Assembly: GCA_963699255.1 (NCBI GenBank)
Contig: OY969425.1
Span: 1 to 32,000, forward strand
DNA: 32,000 nucleotides
Source: an uncultured bacterium
GTDB lineage: Bacteria > Margulisbacteria > WOR-1 > CAVSGV01
Reading direction: 5' to 3'
Below the pieces are notes generated by a model. It did not search any database and was not told the DNA's origin. It saw nothing but the letters and a program-made list of their open reading frames with translations. The position numbers and the translations under genes are program-made. Every line of letters starts with the position of its first letter. The stretch's first letter is position 1. This document shows, piece after piece, positions 44 through 30,045 of this stretch.

Positions 44-1563
<1,520 letters not shown>

Positions 1564-2318: not shown

Positions 2319-2361
2319 CTCCCCTCTGTATATATATCGCAAAAATCGGCTTTATATTTCA
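2319..2361 (-). promoter_or_regulatory. Promoter-like motif copy (TGAAAT-N17-GATATA + TATACAGAGGGGAG)
   Basis: On the minus strand: TGAAAT (2361-2356), exactly 17 nt, GATATA (2338-2333), then the conserved ATATACAGAGGGGAG. There are 56 nt from GATATA to the ATG at 2276. Confidence 0.6.
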
Positions 2362-2403
2362 ATCGATGTGGTTTAGCTTGATCGGCCTTTTTTGTTGAAA
2401 ATG

Positions 2404-2432
2404 AAAAGCCCCTGTGAAAAACAGGGGCTTTT
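2404..2432 (-). terminator. Intrinsic terminator of the 2461-3321 gene
   Basis: Stem GCCCCTGT (2408-2415), loop GAAAA, ACAGGGGC (2421-2428), flanked by A4/T4. It lies 29 nt beyond the stop codon on the minus strand. Confidence 0.6.
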
Positions 2433-2460
2433 AAAACCATTAAAATCAAATACCGGTTCT

Positions 2461-3321
2461 TTAGTACTTCACCGTAACCTCAAGGTTTATCGGCGCGAGC
2501 CTTTTGAGGCCGACATAATACGGATTCGTATTTGGATCGTAAGGCTTGGTCGGATCATAAGGGTCGACTAATACCCTGTTGAGATCGTCTGCATGATACC
2601 CTGTCCATCTGACGCGATTATTGTATACCGTCACTATCCCTTCGTCAGGATCGAAGAGCAGTTTTTGAGCGCTTCCGACGCTATATCGTTTCATAGCGTT
2701 CAGGTCAACTATTGTCGAAGTATCGATCCCGTATTCGACCACCGCGCACACTTCCATGTTCCCGTTGCCTGTTTCGCTGTTCAGCAGCGCCTCGGGCAAA
2801 GTAAATTCCCGCTGTCCGCCGGCGAGATCAAAAATTCCCGCCGACAGCTCCGGCGCCGTAACGGGGTGGTCGCCTTTAAGCTCTACCCACCGTCCGCTTG
2901 TATCAAGGCCGTAGATCTTGCCATGGGACTTGTCAATAAGCTTGACGCTTTTTATATAAAGCTTTACCGGAGCCTGCCCGCCGTCCTTCCACGGGGTCAG
3001 GGCGGCATCGCCGGTCGCGCCGTTTATAAGGCTTCTTACCTGATAATCGACTTTATTGGCCTTTATGATGATCTTCGGCCTATAGCTGGGATCAGTATTG
3101 GGTGAGACCTTGTCAGACACGTCGATCTTCACTATTTTTGAAGTTCGGAACGTGCTGCCGTCATCTCTCACCAAAGGCCCTTCCCACTGGACATTCGTGG
3201 TATATTGCGGCCCTGAGACAGGCTTGGACGAACCTTTTTCACCCTTTTTGCCCTTAAAAAGGATCGAATCGATCAATGAGACCACAGGATTCTTGACAGC
3301 CGTTGTATCTGTTCCGCCCAT
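2461..3321 (-). CDS. Hypothetical protein (286 aa), no recognisable domain
   Basis: Long ORF. The track start at 3330 is GTG, but the ATG at 3321 has AAGGAG 8 nt upstream. It has its own promoter-motif copy and terminator. No signal peptide seen. Pro/Asp/Tyr-rich C-terminus (DPYDPTKPYDPNTNPYY) ending in VKY. Confidence 0.75.
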   Translation of the reverse strand: MGGTDTTAVKNPVVSLIDSILFKGKKGEKGSSKPVSGPQYTTNVQWEGPLVRDDGSTFRTSKIVKIDVSDKVSPNTDPSYRPKIIIKANKVDYQVRSLINGATGDAALTPWKDGGQAPVKLYIKSVKLIDKSHGKIYGLDTSGRWVELKGDHPVTAPELSAGIFDLAGGQREFTLPEALLNSETGNGNMEVCAVVEYGIDTSTIVDLNAMKRYSVGSAQKLLFDPDEGIVTVYNNRVRWTGYHADDLNRVLVDPYDPTKPYDPNTNPYYVGLKRLAPINLEVTVKY

Positions 3322-3363
3322 TTTATTCACTCCTTGGAAGGGTATTGAAATTAATGTCCCTTA

Positions 3364-3406
3364 CTCCCCTCTGTATATATATCGTCAGAAACCGCTTAAA
3401 ATTTCA
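3364..3406 (-). promoter_or_regulatory. Promoter-like motif copy (TGAAAT-N17-GATATA + TATACAGAGGGGAG)
   Basis: On the minus strand: TGAAAT (3406-3401), 17 nt, GATATA (3383-3378), then ATATACAGAGGGGAG. There are 56 nt to the ATG at 3321. The palindromic TATATATA could also serve the divergent + strand gene (TTAATG-N17-TATATA). Confidence 0.6.
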
Positions 3407-3437
3407 ATTATGGAAGAAGGAAGGAAATCCTGATAAA

Positions 3438-4313
3438 ATGTTACAAATGGCTAAACGATCGATACTCTTGCTGCTGCTCTCCGGTATTTTTTTATGTTCA
3501 CACGCATATTCATTCCCGGCGTTAAAACTGACGTCTGGAGGCGGGATCTTCGCCCAGGGGAAGACAGCGTACCTTTATTTCACCTCGAACGAGCCGAGCG
3601 TGGAGATAACCGGCGATTTCCAGGGAAAAGAATTCCGCGCTTATCCTTACCGCGGAAAATACCGCGCGGTGATCGGGTTCAGCATAGACGATCCCGGCAA
3701 CAAGAGCTATTACATGAAGGTGAAGGTGAGGGACGGCGCAGGGGAGACGGGCAATTATCATTATAAGGTATATGTCAGAAGAACAAAGTTCGGCAGGCTT
3801 AATTTTATCCTCAGGCCGAAAAAAGTCGAGATGCTCATGCCGGATACGATAAGGGCTGACTGGAAGAAGATAGAAGATGAGGTCATCAAGGAAAATCCGG
3901 AAAAATACTACCGGGGACGTTTTGTAAAGCCTATATACGGAAGAGTGTCGATGATCTTCGGGATCAATGAATTCATCAACGGAGAAGAATCGGGCAAGCA
4001 CAGGGGATTGGATTTCGCGGCTGTTGCTGGGACGCCTATCATGGCCTCAAATTCCGGCATCGTCAGGCTGGCCGAGCGCCTTCCCGCGCACGGCAATGCG
4101 GTGGTCATAGATCACGGGCAGGGGATATTCACTTATTACGCCCACATGAGCAAGATCCTCGCGACGGTGGGGGAAAAGGTAAAAAAGGGCCAGGTCATCG
4201 GCCTGGTCGGCATGACAGGCGTGGCGACGGGCCCGCATCTTCATTTTTCCATGAGCCTGCATAACCTGCGCGTCGACCCGATGCAGTGGTTAAAGGGAGT
4301 TATAGTAGATTAG
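3438..4313 (+). CDS. Secreted M23 (LytM-type) metallopeptidase
   Basis: C-terminal M23 signature HRGLDFAA..GTPIMASNSGIV..GNAVVIDHGQGIFTYYAHM..GQVIGLVGMTGVATGPHLHF (HxxxD and HxH zinc ligands). The N-terminus MLQMAKRSILLLLLSGIFLCSHAYS looks like a Sec signal. AGGAAGGAA lies upstream of the ATG at 3438; the track start at 3303 would read through the promoter region. Confidence 0.9.
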   Translation: MLQMAKRSILLLLLSGIFLCSHAYSFPALKLTSGGGIFAQGKTAYLYFTSNEPSVEITGDFQGKEFRAYPYRGKYRAVIGFSIDDPGNKSYYMKVKVRDGAGETGNYHYKVYVRRTKFGRLNFILRPKKVEMLMPDTIRADWKKIEDEVIKENPEKYYRGRFVKPIYGRVSMIFGINEFINGEESGKHRGLDFAAVAGTPIMASNSGIVRLAERLPAHGNAVVIDHGQGIFTYYAHMSKILATVGEKVKKGQVIGLVGMTGVATGPHLHFSMSLHNLRVDPMQWLKGVIVD

Positions 4314-4364
4314 AGGAGCTAGAAGAGCTAGGTGTTTAGAGGTTAAGAGGGCAAGAGGAGAAGG

Positions 4365-5453: not shown

Positions 5454-5464
5454 TCGCAGGGTCC

Positions 5465-7007: not shown

Positions 7008-7020
7008 GGTAACCTTTCTT

Positions 7021-8362: not shown

Positions 8363-8400
8363 GATGGTTAGATTTTAGCAGAAAATATTTTAAATTAAAC

Positions 8401-8429
8401 TGAAATTTTCCCATGAATATTACGATAAT
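8401..8429 (+). promoter_or_regulatory. Promoter-like motif copy (TGAAAT-N17-GATAAT), upstream member of a tandem pair
   Basis: TGAAAT 8401-8406, 17 nt, GATAAT 8424-8429. It lacks the downstream ACAGAGGGAG extension and lies 74 nt upstream of the next copy. Confidence 0.4.
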
Positions 8430-8474
8430 AACGCGGAGGAAAAAGCGGCCTACGAAAGCAAATACCTTAATGAT

Positions 8475-8515
8475 TGAAATTTTCGCGTGAAACTGACGAT
8501 ATATAAAGAGGGAAG
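8475..8515 (+). promoter_or_regulatory. Promoter-like motif copy preceding the tandem 900-aa genes
   Basis: TGAAAT 8475-8480, 17 nt, GATATA 8498-8503, then TAAAGAGGGAAG. There are 63 nt to the ATG at 8567, with a small hairpin GACGTT/AACGTC (8538-8553) just before the SD AGGAAGGA. Confidence 0.55.
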
Positions 8516-8566: not shown

Positions 8567-11269
8567 ATGATGATGAATGTTTCAAAAATGACTTTAGGGA
8601 CAAGACAACCGGGTTTGAACCATCCTGTCAGTTATCGGGGGAGGATCCTTTCGCTAATTTCTCCTGAATATGCAATTCACCCGGATTCAGAAAAAATTGG
8701 AAAGATCATACATAATATAGCCCTCTGGCACGCAAGTATCGGAATAAGGACAAATGTTATAATCCCGTATTCCAGTAAACTTGATAACATTAATTGGGAC
8801 CAGATCACATATAACCATCCGCATAATTTCTGCTATAAGGAATATGAGGGCATTCCTGTTTTCGCGATCGGGAAAGACAAGCCTTTTTCTAATGTAATTC
8901 CGCCTAAAGAAACCGGGTATGCCGATCTGATCCATTTTGGGGACGCATTATTATATTTTATGAATCTGAACGACTACAGCAATCATCCAACGGCCTTATT
9001 GCATTTCTTTGATTATCCCATGGGGATCGCCATGGACTACATCAGCAAACAACTTAAAGGGAACCCAATTGCGAGTAATATGATCTTTTCACCAATGGAT
9101 CCGCAAAGAAACTTTCATAAATACAACATGGGAGGAATGGGAGTCGGCATGGAAAAAGTGGATGGGCTCGAAATGGGCGCTAATGTTGCGCATAGCGTCA
9201 TGTTCTGGTCGGATAAGTTTTACAAGGAGCTTCAAGGTAGTCATATGTTCTACGAATTCCTTAGGGTAACTGGCGACAAAGCGGTTAAGTTGCCCGGTAG
9301 CTGGCAGCCTAATGTATTGGATAATATCTCGGAAAAAACATTAAGAGAGATGCAGGAAGTATATATGGGCACGTTATATAAAAAAGGGATAGATAGGTCA
9401 ATACATTTTATGACTGAACCGGACACGAAAATGTTCATGGACAAGGTTTACTACTTCATTCCCGAACCCTCAGACATAGCGAAACCTTCCAGAAAAATAG
9501 TGCTCAAAGATGCTTTAAGGCATGTCGCAAGTGACCTGGACAATATAATTGTCGGTGGACTCAGAGGAGTGAAGATACTTGGCGGAGGAAGGGACAAGGA
9601 TGTGTTCTACGATTACTGGGAGAATCTGGGAGGTTTAACCGCTCTTCTGGAACAGGTCATAGTGGATAACCGGGGGAGAGCGGACGTTGATGTAAAGGGA
9701 GCAAGATACCTTCTTTTGGCAGATGCGGGAGATTTTAAAAGAGGCGGGGTAATGGCCCAGGCGCTAGGAATTGAAGCTCTAAAAAGTTTGACGCCGGAAG
9801 GGGAGAACACACTTGGCATTAATTGTATCAAACAGGCTCCGATCTTTTTCCGTCAGCTGCCTGATCACGGGAAGGGGTGGATAGTTTTTTCCGCTTCGGA
9901 CAATAAATGGCTGCCGGATGGTTCGCCAAAAACGGGGAAAAAATATTTATGGGAGTCAAAGTCCAAGATAATCCTTACCGGGAAGCCGGCCGCCAATGTG
10001 GAGGCTGTAAAAGGCCTGGGTTGTTGGGTCGCTGATGAAGCCGGAAAGATCCAATTGTTCGCGGAGAAAGCTTCGCCGGATGTGGTTAAAAACGCCTTGG
10101 ATAACCTGGGATTGGCAGAGGAAGATATAAACTTGAACCCTTTCGTTTTCGCGATCAAATACGATATTGCTGAAAAAATAGTGAACTTATACAAGGATAC
10201 GCCATGCAAGAAGGACGGAAAAGCTTTTGTGACCACGTATCCCCTGGATATTTCGAGCCATTTTATTTTCCCGACAACGCTTAAAAAGGGGGAATGGCAA
10301 AGGATATACGAGATATTACAGCAGGTCAGAAAAGGCAAGGTGGCTGATGAGGTTTATGATGAAGCTACCGAGAACGGGTTAAATCTGGTCGCGATAGCGA
10401 AAGGGATGAAAAAGTTTGAAAAAGAGAGGATAGGGCAGGTATTTGATAATCTGGAGGATTGGATGATGATATATGAGATGGCGCAGAAAATAAAACTTGA
10501 TGCAAATGATATCGCGGGAGCAAGCATCGGGCCGAATTGCCAGTGGAATGATTACGGGACCCTTGAAGAAATGATCGAAAAGATGTGGATGGCGGCTTTT
10601 GATAACAAGGAGCAGGTCAGATCTGTCGCAAGAAGAAGAACAGGGTTTCCTGAGGACAACAACGATATGAGCGTTGATATGGAACAAATCAAAACGTATG
10701 TAACATTCATTGATCCAGTAACCAATGATGTCATGGATCTCGAGGACGGGGAAATTCCGGAAAAGGTGATAATACAAGATGTTAATTTTGATCATCCGGT
10801 CCAGATCGTTGCCGATAGAGTGATATTGCATGATGTTGTACTGGGAGAGGGAGTGAAAAGGATACCGGCGAATACCATCATTTCCAGAGGGGAAATAGAT
10901 GAGCTGGAAGAAGCTCCCGACCAACCCAAAAGAATATCGCATCAGCCGGCGCTAATATTCAATTGTCATAAAAAGGGCAAGGTCATTGTTTACAGAGGCA
11001 TGGCACACGCATCCCTTAGTCTTGCGTATGTTGATAATGCGGATCTTATCGCACAGGGTTTACATGCATCAGAAACGCCGCTGGCGTTAAGCCCCATATA
11101 TTTCGATCTTAAGGAGGAAATCTTGAAACAGAACAATTATCAACTGTATCCCGGCATTAATCTGCTTGAACCGGGACTGAACATGCTGGATCAGTCGTTC
11201 ATCATAGAAGATGAAAATGGCAAGCCGAAGCTTTTGGGCCTGAACTTTTTCCAGGTCAAGAGCGATTGA
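8567..11269 (+). CDS. Large hypothetical protein, paralog 1 (900 aa): degenerate GT5 glycogen/starch-synthase-like N-domain + unknown middle + hexapeptide-like C-terminal region
   Basis: N-terminal blocks align with GlgA motifs. ILSLISPEYAIHPDSEKIGKIIHNIA..NVIIPYS matches xxxVSSExxPxxKTGGLxDVxxxL..V..P.Y. LLHFFDYPMG matches H.HDW. GANVAHSVMFWSDKFYKEL matches the AD.V.TVS.tYa.E block. The KxGGL loop is replaced by KIGK. Later Gly-rich motifs are ILGGGRD and LLLADAGDFKRGG. About aa 730-775 has 6-residue periodicity (VIIQDV NFDHPV QIVADR VILHDV VLGEGV). Three consecutive ATGs (8567/8570/8573) leave the exact start ambiguous. Confidence 0.8.
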   Translation: MMMNVSKMTLGTRQPGLNHPVSYRGRILSLISPEYAIHPDSEKIGKIIHNIALWHASIGIRTNVIIPYSSKLDNINWDQITYNHPHNFCYKEYEGIPVFAIGKDKPFSNVIPPKETGYADLIHFGDALLYFMNLNDYSNHPTALLHFFDYPMGIAMDYISKQLKGNPIASNMIFSPMDPQRNFHKYNMGGMGVGMEKVDGLEMGANVAHSVMFWSDKFYKELQGSHMFYEFLRVTGDKAVKLPGSWQPNVLDNISEKTLREMQEVYMGTLYKKGIDRSIHFMTEPDTKMFMDKVYYFIPEPSDIAKPSRKIVLKDALRHVASDLDNIIVGGLRGVKILGGGRDKDVFYDYWENLGGLTALLEQVIVDNRGRADVDVKGARYLLLADAGDFKRGGVMAQALGIEALKSLTPEGENTLGINCIKQAPIFFRQLPDHGKGWIVFSASDNKWLPDGSPKTGKKYLWESKSKIILTGKPAANVEAVKGLGCWVADEAGKIQLFAEKASPDVVKNALDNLGLAEEDINLNPFVFAIKYDIAEKIVNLYKDTPCKKDGKAFVTTYPLDISSHFIFPTTLKKGEWQRIYEILQQVRKGKVADEVYDEATENGLNLVAIAKGMKKFEKERIGQVFDNLEDWMMIYEMAQKIKLDANDIAGASIGPNCQWNDYGTLEEMIEKMWMAAFDNKEQVRSVARRRTGFPEDNNDMSVDMEQIKTYVTFIDPVTNDVMDLEDGEIPEKVIIQDVNFDHPVQIVADRVILHDVVLGEGVKRIPANTIISRGEIDELEEAPDQPKRISHQPALIFNCHKKGKVIVYRGMAHASLSLAYVDNADLIAQGLHASETPLALSPIYFDLKEEILKQNNYQLYPGINLLEPGLNMLDQSFIIEDENGKPKLLGLNFFQVKSD

Positions 11270-11334
11270 TGCTGTTTAAAGGAAATGCGGAATTTTAAGA
11301 TCCGGAGTTTGTCAAGTTTTTAGGAGGACTTATC

Positions 11335-14031
11335 ATGGACAGGCTAACAAGGACATCAGGAACAATGAGCCATCCTATCAGTTATCAGGGAAGGACCGTC
11401 TGGCTCGTTTCTCCCGAGCACATTATCCATCCGGGATGCGGGAAAATGGGGAAGATCGTACATGAGATAGCTCTGTCGAACACAAAAGCCGGAACAAATA
11501 CCAATATAATAATTCCATATTCGGAGAAACTGGCTGATGTTAAATGGGACGTAAGTACGCGTAATTATACTCATAATTTTTGCTTTAGGAAGGTTGATAA
11601 TATTAGCATTTTCGCGGTCGGACGCGACCAGCCCTGGTCCGAGGTGGTGCCGGCTCAAGATAAATACTACGAGTATGTACAATTTGCGGACGCGCTGAAT
11701 TATTTTATTCATCTGCACGCTTTTACGCAAGATCCCGCCGCGATCATGCATTTCTTTGATTATCCCATGGGTTTTGCTATGAGCAATCTTAAGAGCACTC
11801 TAAGATATAATGCGAACAATTCTGATCTGATGAACAATATAATATTTTCGCCAATGGATCCGCTTAATTTTAACAAACGATATAATACAGGCGACCTTTA
11901 TAACATAGACGGACTTGAATCGGGCGCTAACGCGGCGCATAAAGTGATGTTCTGGTCAGAGAAATTCTACGATGATATCAAACGAAGCAATAGGTTCCCG
12001 GAGTTTTTAAGCGCGGCCAGCGGCAAAGAGGATATTATGCCCGGCGGCTGGCAGCCCAGAATGACGGAAACGATCCCTCAGGTAACGATACGGGGGATGC
12101 GGGCGGGGTACATGGACACATTGTATAAAAGCGGGCTTGATCGCTCGTTCCATTTTATGGCAAGACCAGGCGTAAAAATGGACAAAGTTTTCTATTTCAT
12201 TCCTGAACCATCCGATACAGGGAAACCTTCCAGGAAATCTGTGATCAGAAAGTCGTTAAGACGCGTCGAGAATGAAATGGATAGTATAGTAAAAAATGGC
12301 ATAGACGGAATTAAGATGCTTGGCGGAGGAAGGGACAATGTGTTCTACGATTACTGGGGGAACCTGGGGGGATTGGTCGCTTTTCTTGAGCAAATGATGA
12401 TTGAGAACACGACCAAAACGGAAGATGAAATAAAAAATGCCAGATATCTTTTCATGGCTGATGCCGGGGATTTTAAGAGGGGCGGCGGAATTGCCCAGGC
12501 AAAAGGAGTGGAAGCTCTAAAAAGCATGACGCCGGAAGGGGATCGCACGCTCGGAATTAACTGCATTTTGCAGGCCCCCGTCTTTTTCCGGCAGCTGCCG
12601 GATGACGGAAAAGGATGGATAGTATACACGGCTTCGGACAATAAATGGATCCCCGACGGCACGCCAAGAACGGGCAATAATTATTTGTGGGAATCAAACG
12701 CTAAAATTATCATCAGCGGGCGGCCGGCCGCAAATGTGGAAGCGGTAAGAGGACTGGGTTGTTGGATCACCGATAAATTCGGCCAGGTCATATTTTTTGC
12801 CGAGAAAGCATCGCCGGAGGTGATCAGACACACCTTAAATAAGTTAGGCCTGAAGGAAGAAGATCTGTGCCTGAACACGTTCGTGTGGGCCATGAAATAC
12901 GATCTTGCCAAAAAGATAGTGGATCTATATAAGAATAAAAAATGCAAGAAGATCATGAAGGGCAAACAAGAAGCAAAATGTTTTGTGACCACGTATCCTA
13001 TGGACATTTCAACTCATTTTATCTTCCCGACAACTCTCACCCGGGCAGAATGGGAAAAAACATACGAAATATTGCAGTATGTTAGAGCGAAAAAGGATAC
13101 CTCCAAATTCAGCAATGAATTTACCGGACGCGGGCTAAGCCTGGTTGAGGTGGCGAAACAAATGAAAGGATTTGAAAAAGAGGGGCCGGGCACTGATCAG
13201 GTCTTTAATGATCTGGATGATTGGATGACCATATATGATATGGCGAGCATTATTAACGAGGATGCAAACGGCATAGATGGAGCGAATATCGGGAAGAATT
13301 GCCTGTGGAACGATTTCGGAGACCTTAAGAGTATGGTTAATGAAATGTATTTTGAAAATTTTTCAGACAATGAATGGGCCAGAAAAGCCGAAAGAACGAG
13401 ATCGGGATACCCTCTGGATAAGAACACTCAGAATGTTGACATGAATGAGATCAGGGACTATGTGAAATTCATAGACCCGGAATCCGGCAAGCCTATGCAG
13501 CTTGCCGAGGGGGAGATACCTGAAAAGGTGATATTAAATAATGTGAGCTTTGATCATCCTGTTGAAATTGTCGCTGACAGGGTAATATTGGATGATGTAA
13601 AGCTTGGGAAAGGGGTCACAAAAATACCGGCAAATACTATCATTGCCAAAGGAGAAATAGAGGATCTGGAAGAAGCTCCAGATCAGTCCGAAACACTTTC
13701 GAAGATGCCGGCATTGATATTCAATTGCCATAAAAAAGGCAAAGTACTTGTTTATAGGGGCATGGCACATGCGTCTCTTAGCCTTGAATATGTCGACCAA
13801 AAAGATCTCAACGAGCAGGGTTTATCACCCTCTGACACGCCACTGACATTAACTCCCATCCTTTTCAATTTAAAAGCACCCATTAATGAGCAAGACGACT
13901 ATATACTGTACCCGGGAATTAATCTGCTTGAACCAGAATTTAGCATGTTAGAGCAGTCGTTCATCATAGAAGATGAAAATGGCAAGCCGAAGCTATTGGG
14001 CCTGACCTTTTTCCAGGTTAAGGGCGACTGA
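11335..14031 (+). CDS. Large hypothetical protein, paralog 2 (898 aa), same architecture as 8567-11269
   Basis: Collinear with paralog 1 over its full length, roughly 55-65% aa identity by eye. Shared motifs include VSPEHIIHPGCGKMGKIVHEIA, HFFDYPMG, MLGGGRD, ADAGDFKRGG and the C-terminus SFIIEDENGKPKLLGL. Strong SD AGGAGG 7 nt before the ATG. No promoter motif in the 65-nt spacer, so it is probably co-transcribed. Confidence 0.85.
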   Translation: MDRLTRTSGTMSHPISYQGRTVWLVSPEHIIHPGCGKMGKIVHEIALSNTKAGTNTNIIIPYSEKLADVKWDVSTRNYTHNFCFRKVDNISIFAVGRDQPWSEVVPAQDKYYEYVQFADALNYFIHLHAFTQDPAAIMHFFDYPMGFAMSNLKSTLRYNANNSDLMNNIIFSPMDPLNFNKRYNTGDLYNIDGLESGANAAHKVMFWSEKFYDDIKRSNRFPEFLSAASGKEDIMPGGWQPRMTETIPQVTIRGMRAGYMDTLYKSGLDRSFHFMARPGVKMDKVFYFIPEPSDTGKPSRKSVIRKSLRRVENEMDSIVKNGIDGIKMLGGGRDNVFYDYWGNLGGLVAFLEQMMIENTTKTEDEIKNARYLFMADAGDFKRGGGIAQAKGVEALKSMTPEGDRTLGINCILQAPVFFRQLPDDGKGWIVYTASDNKWIPDGTPRTGNNYLWESNAKIIISGRPAANVEAVRGLGCWITDKFGQVIFFAEKASPEVIRHTLNKLGLKEEDLCLNTFVWAMKYDLAKKIVDLYKNKKCKKIMKGKQEAKCFVTTYPMDISTHFIFPTTLTRAEWEKTYEILQYVRAKKDTSKFSNEFTGRGLSLVEVAKQMKGFEKEGPGTDQVFNDLDDWMTIYDMASIINEDANGIDGANIGKNCLWNDFGDLKSMVNEMYFENFSDNEWARKAERTRSGYPLDKNTQNVDMNEIRDYVKFIDPESGKPMQLAEGEIPEKVILNNVSFDHPVEIVADRVILDDVKLGKGVTKIPANTIIAKGEIEDLEEAPDQSETLSKMPALIFNCHKKGKVLVYRGMAHASLSLEYVDQKDLNEQGLSPSDTPLTLTPILFNLKAPINEQDDYILYPGINLLEPEFSMLEQSFIIEDENGKPKLLGLTFFQVKGD

Positions 14032-14106
14032 TGTTTTATATTCAATGTTTTCAAAGCCAAGAGAATAGTTTTACGGGTATTTTGAATATTAACGAGATAA
14101 CAAGTT

Positions 14107-17100
14107 ATGGTAGAACGCACTAGGGACATAAGCCATCTGCCTGTAGCGCGGTTCAATTCGCGTTCATGCGGGATCACGTCAAAAATACCCTCAATTAAAG
14201 CCGGCCGTGATGTCGTATCGTCGACTAAAAGAATATTGATCATGTTCAAGCCGGATTGTCTGGCGTACGGAATGGTCCCGGAGACGCTCCAGCTTTTAAA
14301 GAAAGGGCTTGACCGCGAAAAGATAGATGCCCGTTTTGCAGGTCTGGTCCTCCTTAATTTAACGCCTCAGCTGACGGACAGGATATATGCGGAACATGTT
14401 GGAAAGGATTGGTACGAAGGACTATTCAAACCATTCATGACCGCAAAGCACCCGAACGAAAAAGCTGTTCGTGCCCCGATCATCGCGGCAATGCTGGAAG
14501 TAAGAAATGACGCCAGCCGGGATGTTGTCAGCGTGATAAGGAAGAACGTCATCGGCCCCACCGATGTAGAAGAGTACGAAAATAAAGATGAAATAAAGGA
14601 CACATTAAGATACAAACTGATACTGGAAAAAGGATTGTTAACATGGCCGTTCCCGGAGGATCCCAAAGGCCCGAATTACAACAGGATACATTGTTCTGCA
14701 AATGAAAAAATCGCGGGAGATGAACTTTACCCGGTTTTTGGCATAAAAGGCATTTTGTCCAAACTTTATGAACCGTCCGCGGTAAAGGATGTTCTGTCAG
14801 GCTGGAGCCAGCAGGGTTATGCCGATGTCCCCGGCGTGATCAGGATACCGATTCATGAGTATCTTGGGGCTGATCCGGTGATCTTTTCCAGAAAGATCAT
14901 CAGGGCCTTCAGTGACAATGGATGCGTATATAAGGACTTTGATGAGATCAAGGCTGAACAATTGATAAGGTCATTGAATGACATGCGGGAGATGATCCAG
15001 GGCCAGGAGTTTTTTTTTAACAAGGTAACCTCTTCGATCGACCCCACAGATCCCATAAATCCTTTAAAACCAAGAGTTGTAGCAATATTTGGCGCCCCCG
15101 GAAGCGGAAAAACCACCATTTCAGACATATTAAAGAATAAAGGCGTCGTTTCCATTCTGCCTTTGACCGTGAATGAAGAAAGAGAAAAAAGCGGAGCGAC
15201 GGAATATGAGCTCAGATCAAAGACCGAAATATTGCGGATGATCCGGGAGAATGAATTCGTCGGATGGGAAATCCTTGCCGGCAATTATTATGGAATATCA
15301 AAACGGACCGCGGAAATGATCCTGAGATCTTCCGGCAAAACTTTCGCTCTGCTGGCCGGGCCAACAATTGTTTATCCATTAAGGGAAGCGCTCAAGGGGA
15401 AAGCGGACTTTTATCAGGTGATGTTCAAAGTGCCCCCGAATGACCTTGCTTCAAGGATCACAAAACGCGCGACCGTCCGGGACAGGGAAAGGGGCATCGC
15501 TTTATCCCTTGAGACTCAAAAATGGATGGAGGAAAGTTTCGGGAATTTCGACCTCATAACGGAAAACCCGAACAGCGAAAGTGAAACGGCGGCGGCTCAA
15601 AAGCTGATCGATTTTCTGGCCAAGCCCCAAAACGTAGAATTCGACCGCAAAAAAGAAGCTTCAACTCTGGCGGCTACTTATCCATATAATGCCGTGGAAA
15701 TGTTCAAGGACCAGAGACAGAGTTTCAGTAATAAGGATATTGTAACCCTTGAAAAACAAGTCATGTCCCTTGTGGGGACTACAATTGAAGCTATGTACCG
15801 CGCGGTCAGGAGCTCGCTTCCCGCGGAGACGGACCTGGGAGTCGAATTCAATGAATTTTTGTCCGGCTTGATATTGCATACCGCAAAAGTACTGGTCGCC
15901 GGTATTCAGCTTAGATCGTTCCAATATGAAGATATTACCGCGAGCCCGATCAAGTTCGGCAGGATAGGACTGTGCAGCTCAAAAGAAAGGGCGGATAAAC
16001 TTTATAAAAAGCTCAAGGATATCCAGAACAGGATGCCTCTTGAAGAAGAAATGCTTTTTGATCTTGTTCATGATATCGGGAAAATGGAGAACATCATACA
16101 ACATCCCGAAAAAGGTTATGAAATAGCGAAAAGGCTGAAAATGTTCGAAGGGTGGGGGGTTGAAGGGATAGACACCGATGTCGATCTTATTGCCATAAAA
16201 TGCTCGCATCTTATCGGCTCGTATATGTTGCCGGATAATTCGCTTATTGCCGTGGCAGATGAACTTTCCCATAAGGATGTGAAGAGCGTTCTTGCCAGGA
16301 AGGACGGGAGCGTGGACATGGAACGCATGAAAAACTTCCTGGAAAAGATATGTTTTTTCCCGTCCAAGGACGCATCCGGATACAAGGATGGATGGTTGTT
16401 AGTTCTGTTCTCTGAAGGGTATTTTGCCTTTGGAGAATGGCTTTATTCCGTATTCAGCAGGAATTCGGATAATTACGATAACGCGATAGCTGAAATTAAA
16501 AAGAGCAGCGCCGGGTCTAATATGGACAGGATAGCAAAGTGCGTTGCCATGGAGGATGCGGATGCCGATGTCAACGGGCGAACATTCGAATATTACAGGG
16601 ACAATATCGTAATGCCGAACGTCCGGGCCTGCGTTGATGAATGGGTATTCACGCAAAAAGACTGGGATCTGGTCGTGGGGAACCTCCATCATATAAGTAA
16701 ACTCCGTTATTCAACGAACCTGATATGCGATTCCCTGCAGTGGATAGGGGCAAAAGGCGAAAAGATCGAGGACCTCAATAATTACAGGAATATGTTCAAG
16801 CTTTTCGTGATCATGGCTAAATCGCTCATCGCATTCTCAAAGGATCCATCGCGGCCCGGCGATTTTGAGTTCAGGTTCACATATGACGACGGCAAAGAGA
16901 TAATGGGCCCGAAGAATTGGGGGCCGGCAATGGACTTTTGTAATGACCAGCTGGATATTTCAACCGGCGATATTGAAAAAGTCGGCAACAGCATATCAAT
17001 CGTTCCCAAAGAAAAAAGCAAGCTGCCGAACGTGGAAATTACCGAAGAAATCGTGGATGGATGCAGGTTGATCTCCTTCAAGCTTAAAGGTTATTCAGGG

Positions 17101-17121
17101 CAAAATCCCGCTTCAAAATAG
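14107..17121 (+). CDS. Three-domain nucleotide-metabolism fusion (1004 aa): NDK-like + guanylate-kinase-like + HD phosphohydrolase domain + unknown C-terminal third
   Basis: NDK-like region, aa ~41-212: ILIMFKPD, IYAEHVGKDWYEGLFKPFMT, IGPTD, TLRYK, and NRIHCSANEKIAGDEL (compare N.IHGSDSvEsA.rEI; the phospho-His is retained). GMK-like region, aa ~322-505: FGAPGSGKTT P-loop, AGNYYGI (compare GNYYGT), VPPNDLASRITKR, DLITEN; but the SxTTRxxR GMP-binding segment reads PLTVNEER. HD region, aa ~585-715: LHTAKV ... LVHDIGK ... HPEKG. Weak SD, so the start is uncertain. Probably co-transcribed with the paralogs. Confidence 0.8.
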   Translation: MVERTRDISHLPVARFNSRSCGITSKIPSIKAGRDVVSSTKRILIMFKPDCLAYGMVPETLQLLKKGLDREKIDARFAGLVLLNLTPQLTDRIYAEHVGKDWYEGLFKPFMTAKHPNEKAVRAPIIAAMLEVRNDASRDVVSVIRKNVIGPTDVEEYENKDEIKDTLRYKLILEKGLLTWPFPEDPKGPNYNRIHCSANEKIAGDELYPVFGIKGILSKLYEPSAVKDVLSGWSQQGYADVPGVIRIPIHEYLGADPVIFSRKIIRAFSDNGCVYKDFDEIKAEQLIRSLNDMREMIQGQEFFFNKVTSSIDPTDPINPLKPRVVAIFGAPGSGKTTISDILKNKGVVSILPLTVNEEREKSGATEYELRSKTEILRMIRENEFVGWEILAGNYYGISKRTAEMILRSSGKTFALLAGPTIVYPLREALKGKADFYQVMFKVPPNDLASRITKRATVRDRERGIALSLETQKWMEESFGNFDLITENPNSESETAAAQKLIDFLAKPQNVEFDRKKEASTLAATYPYNAVEMFKDQRQSFSNKDIVTLEKQVMSLVGTTIEAMYRAVRSSLPAETDLGVEFNEFLSGLILHTAKVLVAGIQLRSFQYEDITASPIKFGRIGLCSSKERADKLYKKLKDIQNRMPLEEEMLFDLVHDIGKMENIIQHPEKGYEIAKRLKMFEGWGVEGIDTDVDLIAIKCSHLIGSYMLPDNSLIAVADELSHKDVKSVLARKDGSVDMERMKNFLEKICFFPSKDASGYKDGWLLVLFSEGYFAFGEWLYSVFSRNSDNYDNAIAEIKKSSAGSNMDRIAKCVAMEDADADVNGRTFEYYRDNIVMPNVRACVDEWVFTQKDWDLVVGNLHHISKLRYSTNLICDSLQWIGAKGEKIEDLNNYRNMFKLFVIMAKSLIAFSKDPSRPGDFEFRFTYDDGKEIMGPKNWGPAMDFCNDQLDISTGDIEKVGNSISIVPKEKSKLPNVEITEEIVDGCRLISFKLKGYSGQNPASK

Positions 17122-17130
17122 TCCTCAAAT

Positions 17131-17165
17131 TGAAATTTCCAGGAGTTTCATACGATAAATAAAGG
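17131..17165 (+). promoter_or_regulatory. Promoter-like motif copy (TGAAAT-N17-GATAAA)
   Basis: TGAAAT 17131-17136, 17 nt, GATAAA 17154-17159. Only 12 nt separate the -10-like box from the ATG at 17172, which implies a near-leaderless transcript. The motif fills the 50-nt gap after the previous stop. Confidence 0.5.
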
Positions 17166-17171
17166 AAGATT

Positions 17172-24383: not shown

Positions 24384-25840
24384 AAAAAATCGAGAATAAA
24401 TCGGTCAGGCTCGACTGCCGCAGGGTGGAGCTGGACTATTCGCGCCGTAAGCAGTCCGGAAAAATAATAAAGGATTATAACCCATCGAGCAGCAATTATT
24501 ATGAATTGAAGCTGGGACCGGGAAGGGTGTTCACCGAAAGATTCAGATGTAAAGAGGATAATATTTCCACGATAATAGCGAACCTGAAACTCCAGAGGGA
24601 AATGGTGGGTGTTCCTGATATCGGCGACGGCAGGGGAGGAACGAAGATCATTTCGGTTAAGACTCGCATTGCCGAAATGGTCGCCCAGTACCATTCATTT
24701 AAAGATGACAAGGAATACGTTGAAACTGTATTGACCGCCCCTATCTTTCAGCCGCCAAGCTGGATCACAGAGGACATGATGACCACATATTTCCATTACC
24801 TTACCGGCTGGGACACGGAGATCAATCCTGAGGGCGTTGGGTTTGCGGTCGGGCCTTCGGATTTTGTTGATCTGGCCAAGCAGCATCACAGATGGTTCAA
24901 GGGCGGGCCGGAATGTTATCTGGACATGAAAAAATACCTTGACGCGTACCCGGCGTTGAAACATTCAATGCAGGGGTATTCCATGCAACAGGCGTTCTTA
25001 TGGCCGCTACATACCTTAACCGATGAGCTTCTGTATTATGTGCCGGCCGTTTATTGGGCCGGCCAGATACTCAAGATCGGCGGAAAGATCCTGAAGAAGG
25101 GGATAATCCCGTTTTCAACCAACTGGATCTTTATTCCCGTGTTCGGGTGGTATTTCTACTATACCCTTAAGAACTATATAAGGCCGATGGCTTTAATGGG
25201 GGTCAGTTTCCCCGAATTATGGAGAAAAGAAGCGATGCTTTCCATACAGGGACCTGTTTATGAGGACGCCGTTAAAAAGGCGGTCCTGCGAGAGCCGCTT
25301 GAATTCGCGGCGACGGCGGCCGGAGACAGGAAAATGCTCTCGTATGAATTCCTTAAAGGGATAAAATGGAAAAGGAACCTGAGCAAGGTCACAACGCTTG
25401 TCGGAACAGGTATTTCCGCGGGGCTTGTATATCTGAAAGGCGGCGATCTTGAGTGGCAGACTTATGCCGGCTTAGGGTTCAATGTCCTGTTCCCGCTTTT
25501 AAGATGGGGATTGCTCAGCAGCGGGATAAAAGACCAGTATTCTTACCCCACAAGTTATGACACATACCTGAAGGAAAACCTGGAGCTCGAGGGCGCCGGA
25601 TACATAAAAGTATCCGAACATACCCCCGATACAAGGCTTGTAACCTTTAAGGTGAACAGCAAGCAGGACGCGGAAAGGGCGATAAACAGATTATCGGGTA
25701 ATCTGGGAGCGTTCACCCAGGTGAAGAATTATCTTGCGGGCATTCCGGGCACAGCGGGATTTGCCGAAATAGCAAGCCAGATACTGGCGCCTGATAACGC
25801 GGCCGAACCGAACGGACCCAGACCGTGTACCTGGCGGTGA
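24371..25840 (+). CDS. Membrane GT2-family processive-synthase-like protein (489 aa; TED and QxxRW motifs, 4 predicted TM helices)
   Basis: SWITEDMMTTYFHYLTGWDTEINPEGVGFAVGPSDFVDLAKQHHRWFKGG matches the cellulose-synthase-type block (vTED..t.l.l...Gw...y......g.aP.....l.Qr.RWa.G). It is preceded by LKLGPGRVFTERF (compare G.n.vfRR). After QxxRW come two hydrophobic helices, a cytosolic LREPLEFAATAAG segment at the position of the FxVTxK gating loop, two more helices and a ~100-aa soluble tail. GTG start at 24371 with AGGTGATC (24361-24368), perfectly complementary to the 16S 3' end GATCACCT. Confidence 0.7.
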   Translation: MVSVKKIENKSVRLDCRRVELDYSRRKQSGKIIKDYNPSSSNYYELKLGPGRVFTERFRCKEDNISTIIANLKLQREMVGVPDIGDGRGGTKIISVKTRIAEMVAQYHSFKDDKEYVETVLTAPIFQPPSWITEDMMTTYFHYLTGWDTEINPEGVGFAVGPSDFVDLAKQHHRWFKGGPECYLDMKKYLDAYPALKHSMQGYSMQQAFLWPLHTLTDELLYYVPAVYWAGQILKIGGKILKKGIIPFSTNWIFIPVFGWYFYYTLKNYIRPMALMGVSFPELWRKEAMLSIQGPVYEDAVKKAVLREPLEFAATAAGDRKMLSYEFLKGIKWKRNLSKVTTLVGTGISAGLVYLKGGDLEWQTYAGLGFNVLFPLLRWGLLSSGIKDQYSYPTSYDTYLKENLELEGAGYIKVSEHTPDTRLVTFKVNSKQDAERAINRLSGNLGAFTQVKNYLAGIPGTAGFAEIASQILAPDNAAEPNGPRPCTWR

Positions 25841-26775
25841 AGGTAAAAGAAGGCGGAATATACGAGAGCTTCTCAAGGCATTCAAGGATCGACGGTGATT
25901 TCTATTTCAAGCATGACTATAAGATCCAAAAAAATTACCATGACATGGATAAAGACCTTAAGACCGCCGTATCAAAGGGACGACTGGAAGAGGCATTGGA
26001 TAATTACGACAGGATAGTTAAGGAGAAAAGAAGGAACAGCGCTGAGATCCTGGATGATAAAAAATCATATAAAGCAAAGGTGACCGGCGAGGAAACAGGC
26101 CTGCTTAAATCGGCCATCAGCAAGCTTACTGATAATATTAAAAACGAGAACGACCCGGAAAAGACATATGAGGATATCATGCTTCTTTCCAGGGCTTTTG
26201 TAACGACCGGGCGATACGCTGATTCGGCGGCGCTGCTCCTGAAACTGCTTTCCAAGGGGAATAGCACCATCCCGGTAAAAGGGTTTAAGGATAACGAGCT
26301 TGATGCCGCAACAGGCAAAGCAGCTGACGCGGTGAAAGACAGGAGCGAGATAATAAAAAAGATCCGACAGGCTATATTGCGCGATCCGGCTTCCATGAAC
26401 AAGATCGTGCTGTCAATGAAAACGGATGAGATAAAGGAGATATTCGGTTCGACAGGCGCTGTTTTCAACGGGGTAAGCGCTGAAGATATTTCTGATGTAA
26501 CATCAAATATGACCCTGGAACAGGAAGGCGTATTCATGCAGAGCCTGGTCAATGCGGGATGCGGGGAATTAAAGGACGCATTGATCATAGAGTTCTATGG
26601 AGTGAGCGGAAAGTCCTATGATGAACTTATCGCGTTAACAAAGGAGTTTACGAAGAACGAGCGGGCTATAAGGGACATACTGGACAGAGAAGCGAAAAAG
26701 AAAACGGAAAATATAATGATCAGGATAATCGGTCCTGATATCGCGAAACTATTGCTGACAGGGGGCAAGAAATAA
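25825..26775 (+). CDS. Hypothetical helical protein (up to 316 aa)
   Basis: The ORF overlaps the upstream stop and abuts the next ATG (stop 26773-26775, ATG 26776), which suggests operon coupling. Candidate starts are GTG 25825, GTG 25837 (a GTGA overlap with the upstream stop) or ATG 25945. None has a clear SD. Confidence 0.55.
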   Translation: MYLAVKVKEGGIYESFSRHSRIDGDFYFKHDYKIQKNYHDMDKDLKTAVSKGRLEEALDNYDRIVKEKRRNSAEILDDKKSYKAKVTGEETGLLKSAISKLTDNIKNENDPEKTYEDIMLLSRAFVTTGRYADSAALLLKLLSKGNSTIPVKGFKDNELDAATGKAADAVKDRSEIIKKIRQAILRDPASMNKIVLSMKTDEIKEIFGSTGAVFNGVSAEDISDVTSNMTLEQEGVFMQSLVNAGCGELKDALIIEFYGVSGKSYDELIALTKEFTKNERAIRDILDREAKKKTENIMIRIIGPDIAKLLLTGGKK

Positions 26776-29700
26776 ATGAGCGACCCACTTAATAAAATAT
26801 CCGGTTCCGGCAGCACGAACAATATCAAAAAAGACGTAAAGCCGGAAAATAAAAAGAAAAAGGATGAAAACATGGATGTTTCTGTAACGTTCATCCCATA
26901 CGGGCCGGATTACGCGGAAGTGGCGGATTGCGCGTTCGTGTTCAATCCAGCGCAGTATATGGCGCAGCATCAGATAACCGGGAAAACCAACAAAACGGAT
27001 GTGTCAGAGGAATCCAGGCTTTTTGTGGCAAATTTCTTCAAGAGCGGCAAGGAAAGCGTGGATAACGCGAACTTAGAATCCAAAACTAATTTTGTTGCTC
27101 CGATCGTTAGCCCCGAACCGTTCATAAGACCGTTCATAAACTCGGCGGTCCCGGATAAAACGTACGTGTACAACGCGGCGCTGGACGCGGTGCAACGCGA
27201 GGAACAAGAACAGTTCGGTAGCTTCAATGCGAAGGTAAAGCCGGTGGAAGGCAAATGCTTACTTGGAGCTTGGTTCGGAGTTTCCCCGGATGAAAATAAT
27301 TCAAAATCTATTTTCGCTGTCCCTACTGTTGTCAGGAGCGTTACTTTTGACCATTCAGACCTGGAAGCCCTAAAAAAGGAAAATCTGGCCAATCTGAAGA
27401 CCATGCTGGAGAAAAAAGGGTATACAGGCAAAACGGCCCTAAAGCCTGAAAAAATAGATTTTATCAAGGCGCAATTGACGCCATATATCTCTTTGGACCT
27501 GGATTCCGCGAAAGATATAACCGCAGATATCCCGATCGAGATGAAGACCGTAAACAAGAAAATATCGACCATGGAAGATTACAGGAAGAAAAGGGATGAT
27601 TTTGCCGCCCTGACCGGCAAGGCCCCGAAAATAGAAATGATGTTCGAAGTGTGGAGCGATACCTGGACATACAATCCATTCCCGGCGGCTTTTTGCACGG
27701 AAGTTGACCAGCATGGTCATATCCCGATGGTGACATGGGGACCTTCGGGGCTGCCGTTCAACCCGACGGATGACAAAAGCACTTACCTGGATGAATTCAA
27801 CAAGCAGCTCGCGAATAAGCACGGCGAAATTTATGAATACGCGAAAAATTGGGCCGAGGAGGCAAAGGAATACGGGAAGCCGTTCTTGCTGAGGCCGTTC
27901 CATGAAATGAACCTGCAGGACAACTGCGAATGGACGGCGTGGATGAACGGAGGAGAAAAAGGAATAGCTAAATTCAAGAAAGCATGGCAAAACCTGTATA
28001 CATTATTCAAGGAAGTGGGGGCGGACAACGCCACATTCGTCTGGTGCCCGAATACCAGGGGATATCCGCTAGAAGATTGGAACAGTAAAGCGCGGGATTA
28101 CTTCCCCGGCGCCGAATATGTGGATTGGCTGGGCGTTGACGGATATCTGAAGTCCGAGATCAAGACAGGAAGCGAATTTCCGAGATTCGCCACGGTTTTT
28201 GGGGCCACGATCGGGAAATCGACCGTTCCAAAAAGCAGGATTGTCGGTATTTTTGGAGCGAAAGATATGTCCTGGCGCCAGTATTTCGTCGATCCGGACG
28301 ATAAGGACATTCTTTTTAAGCCTGATATTGAAAATGAATTAAGAAAACAGGCGAATCCCGGCAAGGACACAAAAGCGGACCCGGTTAAAGCAGAAAGGTC
28401 ACGCAAGCTGCTTAAAATTTATGATGAGATCCCCGAGTTGAGCTTATTGTCCAAACAATACCATAAGCCTTTGATGATATGTGAAACATCTTCAAGGCCG
28501 GACCTGTACAAGGCCGAATATTTCACGCAATTATTTGGCGCTGCGAAAGCATACGACCTGAGCGCGGTGGTCCTGTTCAACCAGAACAAATTAGGGATGG
28601 GCGGAAGCGCAGAGGATGACTGGCTTATTGACGCGCCGATCAAGGGCGAAAAGGAAGAGCTTAGTGCCGAGGCGCAAATACAGCTTGATCAGGCAGCGCG
28701 CGAATCCAAAGAGGCGTGGCAATATGTATTCGATCATCTTAAGGATATGGGTTTACCCGAGCCCACAAAGGTTTTAGTTGCCCCGGAAAGGAATCCGGTG
28801 CTTGAAACATTCAGGAATATCGGGAATGACGGTTCCCTGCTGTTCGACCCAAAGGGAATATCGGTCAATAAAATAGGAGTGAACAACGAAACGCCGCAGG
28901 ATATCAAGATGCCGGAGCGGGAAAAAGATCTGAACATAAAAATAAGAAAGCGCAACACCGAGCTGAAAATTTATCCGCAGGACATTGATATAAGGATGAA
29001 GGTGGGGGAGTATCAGGAAGAACTTTCCGGCTACCAGTACCTTAAAGTAATAAATGAAAAAATCGATCCTAAGGAGGTCCTGAAAAAGATAGGCGAACAG
29101 CATCAGCTGGCCATAAATGAACTTAAAAAAGTGCCCGGATCGGACCGCAATTACCTGAAAGCGCGCGCTGCAATGAAAGAAATCTACGCCTCATGGGATT
29201 CTGACGATAAAGACCTGAAAAAGTACTACAGGGATCAAGCGAAAAAGATATCCCTGGAAATAATAGCATTGACGAAAGACGAAAAATACATCAAGCCTTT
29301 TAGCAATAAAACGGCGCTCAAATTCTTTGACCCCGGGTATACAGAAAGGGAGCTGCTCGGGATGAGGGCTTCCGCTCATGTGACGATAGCGGACATTTAC
29401 GCGGAATGGTCCGAAAAGGAAAATGCGAAAAAAGAATATACAGAAGCTTTGAAGATCCTGAAAAACGAAGAATTCCAGAGAAGCGCGTATAAAGACAAGC
29501 TGGCGAATTCAAGCGCGGAATACCGGCAGGAAAAACATTATCCGGACGCTGGCAGGGACTTTTTGGAGGCGTGCGTTTATCCGGTGAACTGGCTTACCAG
29601 GGATAAGGACAAGGACCTGAAGACAAGCATCGCGATCGGCATGGCGAAAGTGAAGACCCTTGATACTAAAGACACAAAAACCTTTGATGAAGGCATTGAA

Positions 29701-29961
29701 GAGCTGAATAATATCGCTTACAAAACTTTCGGCGTAAGCCCAAGGCTTGTATTAAAGGCAAAAGTCGAGCTCGCGTACGCGCTAGCCAACTACGCGTTAA
29801 TAGCGAAGAAAGTGAAAGACAAGGATCCGGCACTTTACAACAGTTATATGGCCAAGGCAATGCAGTCGTTCGTTATCGCAAGGGGACTCTTTGCCACGGA
29901 ATACGCCTACAAGGCCGGCAAACTGATAGATGACCTCACGGCGACCCTGATCAAACAATAA
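26776..29961 (+). CDS. GH26-like glycoside hydrolase with unknown N-terminal region and helical-repeat (TPR-like) C-terminal region (1061 aa)
   Basis: aa ~290-625 follow the family-26 pattern: HIPMVTWGP, KPFLLRPFHEMN..W..W (acid/base Glu in HEMN, aa 377), KFKKAWQNLYTLF, ADNATFVWCPN, YFPGAEYVDWLGVDGY, KPLMICETSS (nucleophile Glu, aa 570), AVVLFNQ. The Lys-rich N-terminus MSDPLNKISGSGSTNNIKKDVKPENKKKKD has no signal peptide. aa ~780-1061 are helix-rich with TPR-like heptads. Confidence 0.75.
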   Translation: MSDPLNKISGSGSTNNIKKDVKPENKKKKDENMDVSVTFIPYGPDYAEVADCAFVFNPAQYMAQHQITGKTNKTDVSEESRLFVANFFKSGKESVDNANLESKTNFVAPIVSPEPFIRPFINSAVPDKTYVYNAALDAVQREEQEQFGSFNAKVKPVEGKCLLGAWFGVSPDENNSKSIFAVPTVVRSVTFDHSDLEALKKENLANLKTMLEKKGYTGKTALKPEKIDFIKAQLTPYISLDLDSAKDITADIPIEMKTVNKKISTMEDYRKKRDDFAALTGKAPKIEMMFEVWSDTWTYNPFPAAFCTEVDQHGHIPMVTWGPSGLPFNPTDDKSTYLDEFNKQLANKHGEIYEYAKNWAEEAKEYGKPFLLRPFHEMNLQDNCEWTAWMNGGEKGIAKFKKAWQNLYTLFKEVGADNATFVWCPNTRGYPLEDWNSKARDYFPGAEYVDWLGVDGYLKSEIKTGSEFPRFATVFGATIGKSTVPKSRIVGIFGAKDMSWRQYFVDPDDKDILFKPDIENELRKQANPGKDTKADPVKAERSRKLLKIYDEIPELSLLSKQYHKPLMICETSSRPDLYKAEYFTQLFGAAKAYDLSAVVLFNQNKLGMGGSAEDDWLIDAPIKGEKEELSAEAQIQLDQAARESKEAWQYVFDHLKDMGLPEPTKVLVAPERNPVLETFRNIGNDGSLLFDPKGISVNKIGVNNETPQDIKMPEREKDLNIKIRKRNTELKIYPQDIDIRMKVGEYQEELSGYQYLKVINEKIDPKEVLKKIGEQHQLAINELKKVPGSDRNYLKARAAMKEIYASWDSDDKDLKKYYRDQAKKISLEIIALTKDEKYIKPFSNKTALKFFDPGYTERELLGMRASAHVTIADIYAEWSEKENAKKEYTEALKILKNEEFQRSAYKDKLANSSAEYRQEKHYPDAGRDFLEACVYPVNWLTRDKDKDLKTSIAIGMAKVKTLDTKDTKTFDEGIEELNNIAYKTFGVSPRLVLKAKVELAYALANYALIAKKVKDKDPALYNSYMAKAMQSFVIARGLFATEYAYKAGKLIDDLTATLIKQ

Positions 29962-30012
29962 CAGGTCTTCTCCCGAAGGGCAAAGACCGCGCAAAAATAT
30001 TTTAAAAACCAG

Positions 30013-30045
30013 TGAAATTTACGACGAAACCTGCCGATATATATA
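30013..30045 (+). promoter_or_regulatory. Promoter-like motif copy (TGAAAT-N17-GATATA)
   Basis: TGAAAT 30013-30018, 17 nt, GATATA 30036-30041, within the near-palindrome CCGATATATATATGTCGG. There are 65 nt to the ATG at 30107. Confidence 0.5.

Follow-up and report, generated by a model that had tools for sequence, protein, structure and literature searches.

The first 32,000 nucleotides (nt) of contig OY969425.1 (assembly GCA_963699255.1), from an uncultured bacterium of the Margulisbacteria class WOR-1, raise the question of what one bipartite motif, TGAAAT-N17-GATAWW, is doing nine times in front of genes in and around an accessory island. We refer to this whole 32,000-nt stretch as the window. 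A first-pass annotation had proposed that the motif is a dedicated regulon signal, possibly a duplicated promoter cassette or simply a strong housekeeping promoter. We conclude, with a probability of about 0.8, that it acts as a promoter for an alternative sigma factor belonging to the sigma-28 (FliA) family and forms a second promoter class, here called class A. Both the initiation of RNA polymerase at class A sites and the identity of the sigma factor that reads them are inferred. The genome consists of one contig of 1,770,855 bases (47.5% G+C), of which the window is the first 32 kb, and its lineage is a sister group of Cyanobacteria.

The nine sites in the window

A pattern search of both strands of the window returned exactly nine matches, all at the coordinates and on the strands given by the first-pass annotation and no others (Table 1). 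Dinucleotide-preserving shuffles gave a chance expectation of 0.05 matches, with a largest value of 1; the earlier estimate was 0.02, and nine is far above either figure. The spacing is invariant, as had been claimed: genome-wide, 63 exact matches have a spacer of 17 nt compared with 2 to 6 at each other spacer length between 12 and 22 nt.

Under our own gene calls, all nine copies are intergenic and point at the adjacent gene, with the caveat that the longest-ORF (open reading frame) starts 2342 and 3303 would run over sites 2333 and 3378 and that site 21300 is overlapped by a small ORF judged to be spurious. Three spacers of 50, 47 and 46 nt (17122-17171, 18606-18652 and 19397-19442) do consist almost entirely of the motif, and the stop codon TGA at 19394-19396 supplies the first three bases of a TGAAAT box. 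The longer common tail (CGATATATATAC..AG.GGGAG) attributed to five copies was found in four (2333, 3378, 18608 and 19394), the copy at 8475 matching it only loosely. No motif copy faces the leu, thiE or M23 genes, again as described earlier.

The accessory island in the window is cut into six predicted class A transcription units. From the density of the genome as a whole, 2.0 sites would be expected in the window rather than nine (approximately 4.5-fold enrichment, Poisson 2e-4); the island is therefore a local concentration of short units and not the home of the signal.

A probable genome-wide promoter class

A position weight matrix (PWM) was seeded with the 63 exact sites and then iterated over the genome. 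It identifies 111 sites scoring at least 14 bits (4 in the reversed-genome control) and 102 scoring at least 20 bits (1 in the control). There are few intermediate scores: the distribution is bimodal and the class is discrete. In this genome, class A comprises about 105-111 sites and marks approximately 11% of upstream regions. Our gene calls are home-made and crude (1,606 genes) but, on this basis, some 95 of the 111 sites lie between genes and point in the direction of the next one, with a median of 49 nt to the start codon. The motif is always directed at a gene and lies 13-250 nt ahead of its start codon.

Counting every 5-mer/gap/5-mer dyad in upstream regions, without a prior choice of pattern, also places GAAAT-16-CGATA by far at the top. 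If TGAAAT alone is fixed, the only enriched hexamers 16 nt downstream are CGATAA (34) and CGATAT (32). The logo includes, in addition to the two boxes, an A-rich upstream stretch, T at -30 to -28 and an enriched G 7 nt past GATAWW, at the predicted +1. Within the -10 element, C occurs in 97% of sites and the following G, A, T and A are invariant (these four being set by the search pattern).

All 65 genomes of the same class contain the form TGAAAT-N16-CGATAW, with copy numbers of 7-183 (0-3 in reversed controls); outside this class, in the same phylum, its distribution is patchy. The motif does not specially wire the island, as had been thought: it is a genome-wide class found across the taxonomic class. 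The first-pass proposal of a dedicated regulon signal read by a specific sigma factor is supported, but not its confinement to the island. The first-pass annotation had also asked whether the motif precedes a large fraction of all genes, as a generic consensus would; the figure of about 11% does not refute its proposal.

The dyad count also returned other enriched pairs, namely GAGAT-16-GAGAT (17 regions) and the palindromic GAACC-16-GGTTC / GGAAC-17-GGTTC (approximately 15 regions).

Resemblance to sigma-28 promoters

In the open complex of Pseudomonas sigma-28, the -10 element reads G-15 C C G A T A A-8. Of these bases, A-11 flips out onto Y76. Residues R80 and D87 recognise G-12 and C-13, and R97 recognises the GC at -15/-14; position -7 is neither conserved nor flipped. 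Recognition of the -35 element at its upstream end is by Q228 and S224 (PMC12784957). In the same numbering, class A reads T-35 G A A A T T T-28 and C-13 G A T A W W-7, without the conserved GC. TGAAAT(TT) would be the -35 element and CGATAWA the -10 element, and transcription would start at a purine about 7 nt after GATAWW.

The likeness to promoters of the sigma-28 type (FliA/SigD/WhiG, group 3; TAAA-N15-GCCGATAA) lies in an identical distance from AAA to CGATA (GAAA-N17-CGATAA in class A), an identical CGATA(A/T) core, A-11 as the flipped base and an unconserved -7. It extends to the proteins: the genome has FliA-like sigma genes linked to flagellar genes, and their readers of C-13, G-12 and A-11 are kept.

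A probable sister promoter class

If N16-CGATAW is anchored instead, GCAAGT appears as a second enriched -35 hexamer (11 copies compared with 0.25 at control spacings). The looser pattern GCAAG-N17-CGATA has 19 sites, approximately 16 of them intergenic and co-oriented, and the fuller consensus is cATGCAAGTTTT-N12-C(A/C)CGATA. This class B, which has the geometry and the -10 element of class A, occurs in 65 of the 65 genomes of the class (2-22 copies; controls 0-2) but not in the window. In this genome, each of the two flagellar clusters has a class B site at its head and a FliK-like first gene. A FliA-like sigma of 245 amino acids (aa) is encoded in one of the two, and the other probably runs down to flhA. 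In at least six genomes, from two families, a class B site is again seen some 6.5 kb ahead of the gene for the 245-aa sigma. Class B sites also precede several orphan genes and the gene of a 2,620-aa protein.

Some sites in the class A register have a minor variant of the -35 box, which is TGCAAT or TGCGAT in 7 cases and TGGGAT in another 7. TGCAAT appears to be intermediate between class A and class B. In addition, sites of both classes surround the sigma-54 gene (genome 975980-977347): a class B site 380 nt upstream, a divergent class A-like site alongside it, and a class A site at the 3' end of the gene (region 975479-977347).

Candidate sigma factors

The genome encodes RpoD, sigma-54, two extracytoplasmic function (ECF) sigmas and two FliA-like sigmas. 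The 245-aa FliA-like sigma has regions 2, 3 and 4, scores 135 bits with TIGR02479 (below the cut-off of 189.6) and has WhiG and FliA as its best PDB matches. It lies in an operon of the order flgA, flgH, flgI, a 95-aa gene, the sigma, a 98-aa gene, flgC, fliE, fliF. The second, of 193 aa, has regions 2 and 4 only; it matches FliA/WhiG models and FliA structures best, rather than ECF families. Its gene is just downstream of flhA, from which it is separated by two small genes (126 and 74 aa, no known family; genome 265706-266888) whose products may be anti-sigma partners. Both sigmas keep Y76, R80 and D87 and have Arg at the position of Q228. The R97 position is Tyr in the 245-aa sigma and falls within the region absent from the 193-aa sigma.

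An ortholog of the 193-aa sigma is present in 64 of 65 genomes of the class (57-93% identity) and one of the 245-aa FliA in 58 of 65. Those homologs of the 193-aa sigma that bear a name belong to Margulisiibacteriota, Saganbacteria and candidate division WOR-1, which independently establishes the lineage. A class A site lies between flhA and the first small gene of the 193-aa sigma sub-operon, both in this genome and in 16 of the 26 relatives with enough upstream sequence. If it is this sigma that reads class A, the site before its own sub-operon would provide positive autoregulation.

We consider two candidates for the class A reader. The chances are about even that it is the 193-aa sigma without region 3, and somewhat below even that it is the 245-aa FliA of the flagellar basal-body operon; there is a small chance that both sigmas, or another factor, are involved. 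In the simplest circuit, each FliA-like sigma would reinforce its own operon: the 245-aa FliA would run the flagellar class B (GCAAGT-N16-CGATA), and the 193-aa paralog, first expressed by read-through from flhA, would run class A. The reverse wiring, in which the two sigmas form a mutual loop, is only a little less probable.

The linkage between flhA and the 193-aa sigma is seen even in another class of the phylum. Some other lineages of the phylum (L127 of G068 and L143 of G053) carry a third FliA type with the canonical recognition helix (SESR-SQIH), distinct from the two sigmas of this genome.

Content of the regulon

We sampled 40 random first genes behind class A sites outside the window. 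No Pfam match was found for 24 of these. The other 16 include eight repeat proteins (TPR, LRR, ankyrin, HEAT), an SLH surface protein, an amylase, a subtilase, a GH8 enzyme, a methyltransferase, an RRM protein and two domains of unknown function. Class A would switch on lineage-specific, fast-evolving genes. For ten island proteins, PADLOC reported no defence family and one weak DolB match only.

Class A is a variant of the known sigma-28 kind, unusual in its very large non-flagellar regulon and its paired sister class. It differs from known sigma-28 systems in having about 100 units in 1.77 Mb, non-flagellar as far as sampled, and in the presence of two FliA-like sigmas and two promoter classes with a common -10 element, one candidate sigma being without region 3. 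Sigma-28 regulons that are not flagellar include the Chlamydia late genes and the Bdellovibrio attack-phase FliA regulon. Class A resembles these in the probable use of a FliA-type sigma for developmental or lifestyle genes beyond flagella, but the set is far larger for the genome size and consists mostly of proteins without a known family. No published account of the motif was found in the literature searched.

The practical value of the motif is that of a simple sequence rule, which marks approximately a tenth of the transcription units in an uncultivated phylum-level lineage. Nearly all marked units encode proteins of unknown function, so that co-regulated sets of orphan genes become predictable from sequence alone. 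The system, in which two related sigmas and two related promoter classes take FliA-type control far beyond flagella, also offers a tractable case for studying the divergence of sigma specificity and of regulons.

One further possibility, which we regard as unlikely, is that the two FliA-like sigmas act as a cascade of two tiers, coupled to an export apparatus of flagellar type without a recognisable flagellin, class A being a regulon of secretion-coupled cargo or effectors. The flagellin N-terminal domain (PF00669) was not found. In such a cascade, class B promoters (GCAAGT-N16-CGATA) would build the export apparatus as the first tier; in the second, the region-3-less FliA paralog after flhA would activate the approximately 100 class A units. 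These units would supply orphan, eukaryote-like repeat (Ank, LRR, TPR, HEAT) and surface proteins, and newly acquired or newborn genes, such as those of the island, could join the regulon simply by gaining a promoter.

Alternative explanations

A number of observations weigh against a sigma-28 type promoter or against a choice between its two candidate readers. The class A -35 element is tGAAAtt rather than the cTAAAg of sigma-28 promoters, with an invariant G in place of T, and is identical at five of six positions to that of Bacillus sigma-W, an ECF sigma, with the same spacing. The extended -10 GC of sigma-28 promoters is absent: position -15 is G in 49% of sites and -14 is A in 45%. Flagellar genes number 0 among the 40 sampled and are also lacking among the window genes, unlike the classical FliA regulons. 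The rpoD gene has a class A copy directly upstream. As for the reader, nothing separates the two candidates, which have the same -10 readers and both have Arg at the Q228 position, and the recognition helices of neither sigma family track motif abundance (20 homologs of each, from motif-rich and motif-poor lineages of the phylum).

Natural losses of a single sigma are equally unhelpful, every apparent case being a contig break. G142 (95% complete, 103 motif copies), taken as a loss of the 245-aa FliA, is missing FliA, FliF and FlgI and keeps FlhA, but its contig ends 600 nt past the gene flanking the cluster. G033 (94% complete), taken as a loss of the 193-aa sigma, has a contig that ends 437 nt past flhA, in the place where the gene is expected. 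Both were rejected as assembly gaps. Family f39, which is without a FliA245-like gene, was rejected as a natural experiment: it is also without the AARTTT-N14-CGATAW class and is uninformative. In G033, G090, G095, G104, G118, G120, G124, G133, G135 and G142, contigs stop no more than a few hundred bases from the 193-aa sigma gene or from the flagellar cluster; something in this vicinity seems hard to assemble.

Among the alternatives, it is improbable that the motif is the binding site of a dedicated activator or repressor acting with an ordinary sigma-70 promoter, rather than a promoter itself. A bipartite motif with fixed spacing could be a dimer site, but the two halves are asymmetric, the orientation is always towards the gene, at 13-250 nt from the start codon, and the three spacers of 46-50 nt are too short for an additional promoter. 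Moreover, sigma-70-like hexamers are scarce in motif regions (see below), the second box coincides with the -10 core of sigma-28 promoters, and there is an excess of a purine at the predicted +1.

The suggestion that the motif is the general housekeeping (sigma-A) consensus is much harder to maintain, even though its spacing of 17 and A/T-rich second box look sigma-70-like and both rpoD and an RRM RNA-binding protein gene carry a copy. The 16S rRNA gene of the window served as an internal control. Its promoter is a perfect TTGACA-N18-TATAAT (12/12) at genome 1770680-1770709, downstream of an intrinsic terminator; lying at the contig end, it serves the 16S gene only if the record is circular, which we assumed. 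The motif copy nearby, at genome 1770123, serves the small RRM-protein gene ahead of the terminator. Canonical sigma-70 matches of 10-11/12 occur at the correct distance from several tRNA genes, and none of the tRNA genes checked carries the class A motif. In 790 upstream regions, sigma-70-like matches of at least 10/12 were found in 164 of 704 without the motif but in 7 of 86 with it (Fisher p = 8e-4); the same threshold gave 32 of 790 in shuffled regions. The canonical rRNA and tRNA promoters, together with this depletion, point to an ordinary sigma-70 class plus a second, largely exclusive class. Core housekeeping genes were 0 of the 40 sampled downstream genes and, as seen above, the motif is restricted to about a tenth of upstream regions, with bimodal rather than graded scores. 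The housekeeping reading offered by the first-pass annotation is accordingly dropped. The 16S rRNA gene itself is solitary: it is followed by a protein gene on the other strand, with no 23S gene next to it.

A reading by an ECF (group 4) sigma has about as little to recommend it. The sigma-W consensus of Bacillus is TGAAAC-N16-CGTA, two ECF sigmas are encoded in the genome and the 193-aa candidate shares the sigma2 plus sigma4 build of ECF factors, with the motif in its own operon. However, the class A -10 element has CGA, not CGT, and the 193-aa sigma scores best on FliA/WhiG. The true ECF sigmas of the genome are not conserved: one has no ortholog in 64 genomes of the class. Close orthologs of the other are limited to two of its family's five genomes, and at E <= 1e-15 it goes unmatched in 21 of 65 genomes, some of which are 99-100% complete. 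The motif is upstream of neither ECF gene. This patchy distribution, set against a motif found in all 65 genomes, excludes the ECF sigmas as readers.

The related island and its sites

The divergent PurA-like protein of the window has one close relative, with 58% identity, among 5.8 billion proteins. The metagenome contigs that encode this relative (L101 and L102) carry the same island beside leuC and leuD and were compared with window positions 7082-32000. The whole island is absent from 64 species genomes of the class and recurs in this one related uncultivated organism. The 477-aa and 286-aa window proteins have no ortholog in the 64 class genomes.

Six of the nine window sites have counterparts at orthologous spacers in the syntenic contig (Table 1), whereas site 21300 has none. 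In the six pairs, the -35 box is identical at 36 of 36 positions and the -10 box at 40 of 42, compared with 61% for the spacer and about 50% for the flanks. As the sites were located by the matrix, the identity of the boxes is partly built in; the independent fact is that matches occur in the same spacers.

The remaining idea, of a duplicated promoter cassette or mobile element spread within the island, can hardly be entertained: sites 2333 and 3378 do share leader sequence and the longer tail is common to four or five sites, but only the two boxes are common to all, the central spacers average 39% identity, the sites are spread over the whole chromosome, and their position is kept in a relative whose flanks are only half identical.

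The proteins behind 2333 and 3378 are unrelated, which also rejects a common origin of these two genes. A paralog of the 286-aa orphan behind site 3378 (52% identity) is encoded in the extended island at genome 39923-40504; the 'distant' genes and the island therefore share gene families.

Table 1. Predicted promoter sites and the control gene. Positions are those of the window unless marked as genome; +1 positions are predicted from sigma-28 geometry, and counterparts are positions in contig L101.
Feature	Position	Strand	Support	Distance to start	Predicted +1	Downstream gene or unit	Counterpart
Class A promoter (predicted)	2333..2361	-	Exact match, PWM 26.9 bits	30 nt (GATAWW end to ATG)	2326 (G)	Orphan gene 1833-2303 (-)	
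Class A promoter (predicted)	3378..3406	-	Exact match, 38.2 bits	57 nt	3371 (G)	Orphan gene 2461-3321 (-)	
Class A promoter (predicted), distal in tandem pair	8401..8429	+	Exact match, 35.3 bits			Unit 8567-17121: two ~900-aa paralogs and an NDK/guanylate-kinase-like protein	1724
Class A promoter (predicted), proximal in tandem pair	8475..8503	+	Exact match, 36.9 bits	64 nt to ATG at 8567	8510 (G)		1815
Class A promoter (predicted) in 50-nt spacer	17131..17159	+	Exact match, 35.6 bits		17166 (leader ~6 nt)	477-aa orphan gene 17172-18605	7672
Class A promoter (predicted) in 47-nt spacer	18608..18636	+	Exact match, 36.0 bits			Methyltransferase-like gene 18653-19396	9163
Class A promoter (predicted) in 46-nt spacer	19394..19422	+	Exact match, 38.2 bits			Divergent PurA-like gene 19443-19652 + 19657-21231	9949
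Class A promoter (predicted)	21300..21328	+	Exact match, 30.3 bits			Unit 21357-29961: 1008-aa, 489-aa and 316-aa proteins and a GH26-containing protein	
Class A promoter (predicted)	30013..30041	+	Exact match, 32.2 bits	66 nt to ATG		1459-aa gene from 30107, continuing past the window end	20641
Class B sites	Genome 81870, 169995, 172253, 181772, 185769, 252819, 276060, 368533, 852968, 894887, 975574, 1028443, 1228890, 1337786, 1464923						
Minor -35 variant sites	Genome 188862, 207976, 346438, 352264, 1471880, 1473592, 1701859; 70876, 227038, 237713, 238651, 975479, 1242782						
16S rRNA gene (internal control)	44..1561	+	Rfam SSU match, 1537 bits				

The content shared by the two islands includes the 900-aa, guanylate-kinase-like, 471-aa, methyltransferase, PurA-like, giant and GH26 proteins, among others. 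The comparison also bears on the 69-aa micro-ORF at 19443-19652, which corresponds to the PurA-like N-terminus, being 54% identical to the 608-aa relative over residues 1-56 of the latter. A frame change near 19650, either genuine or introduced by the assembly, divides the PurA-like gene here in two.

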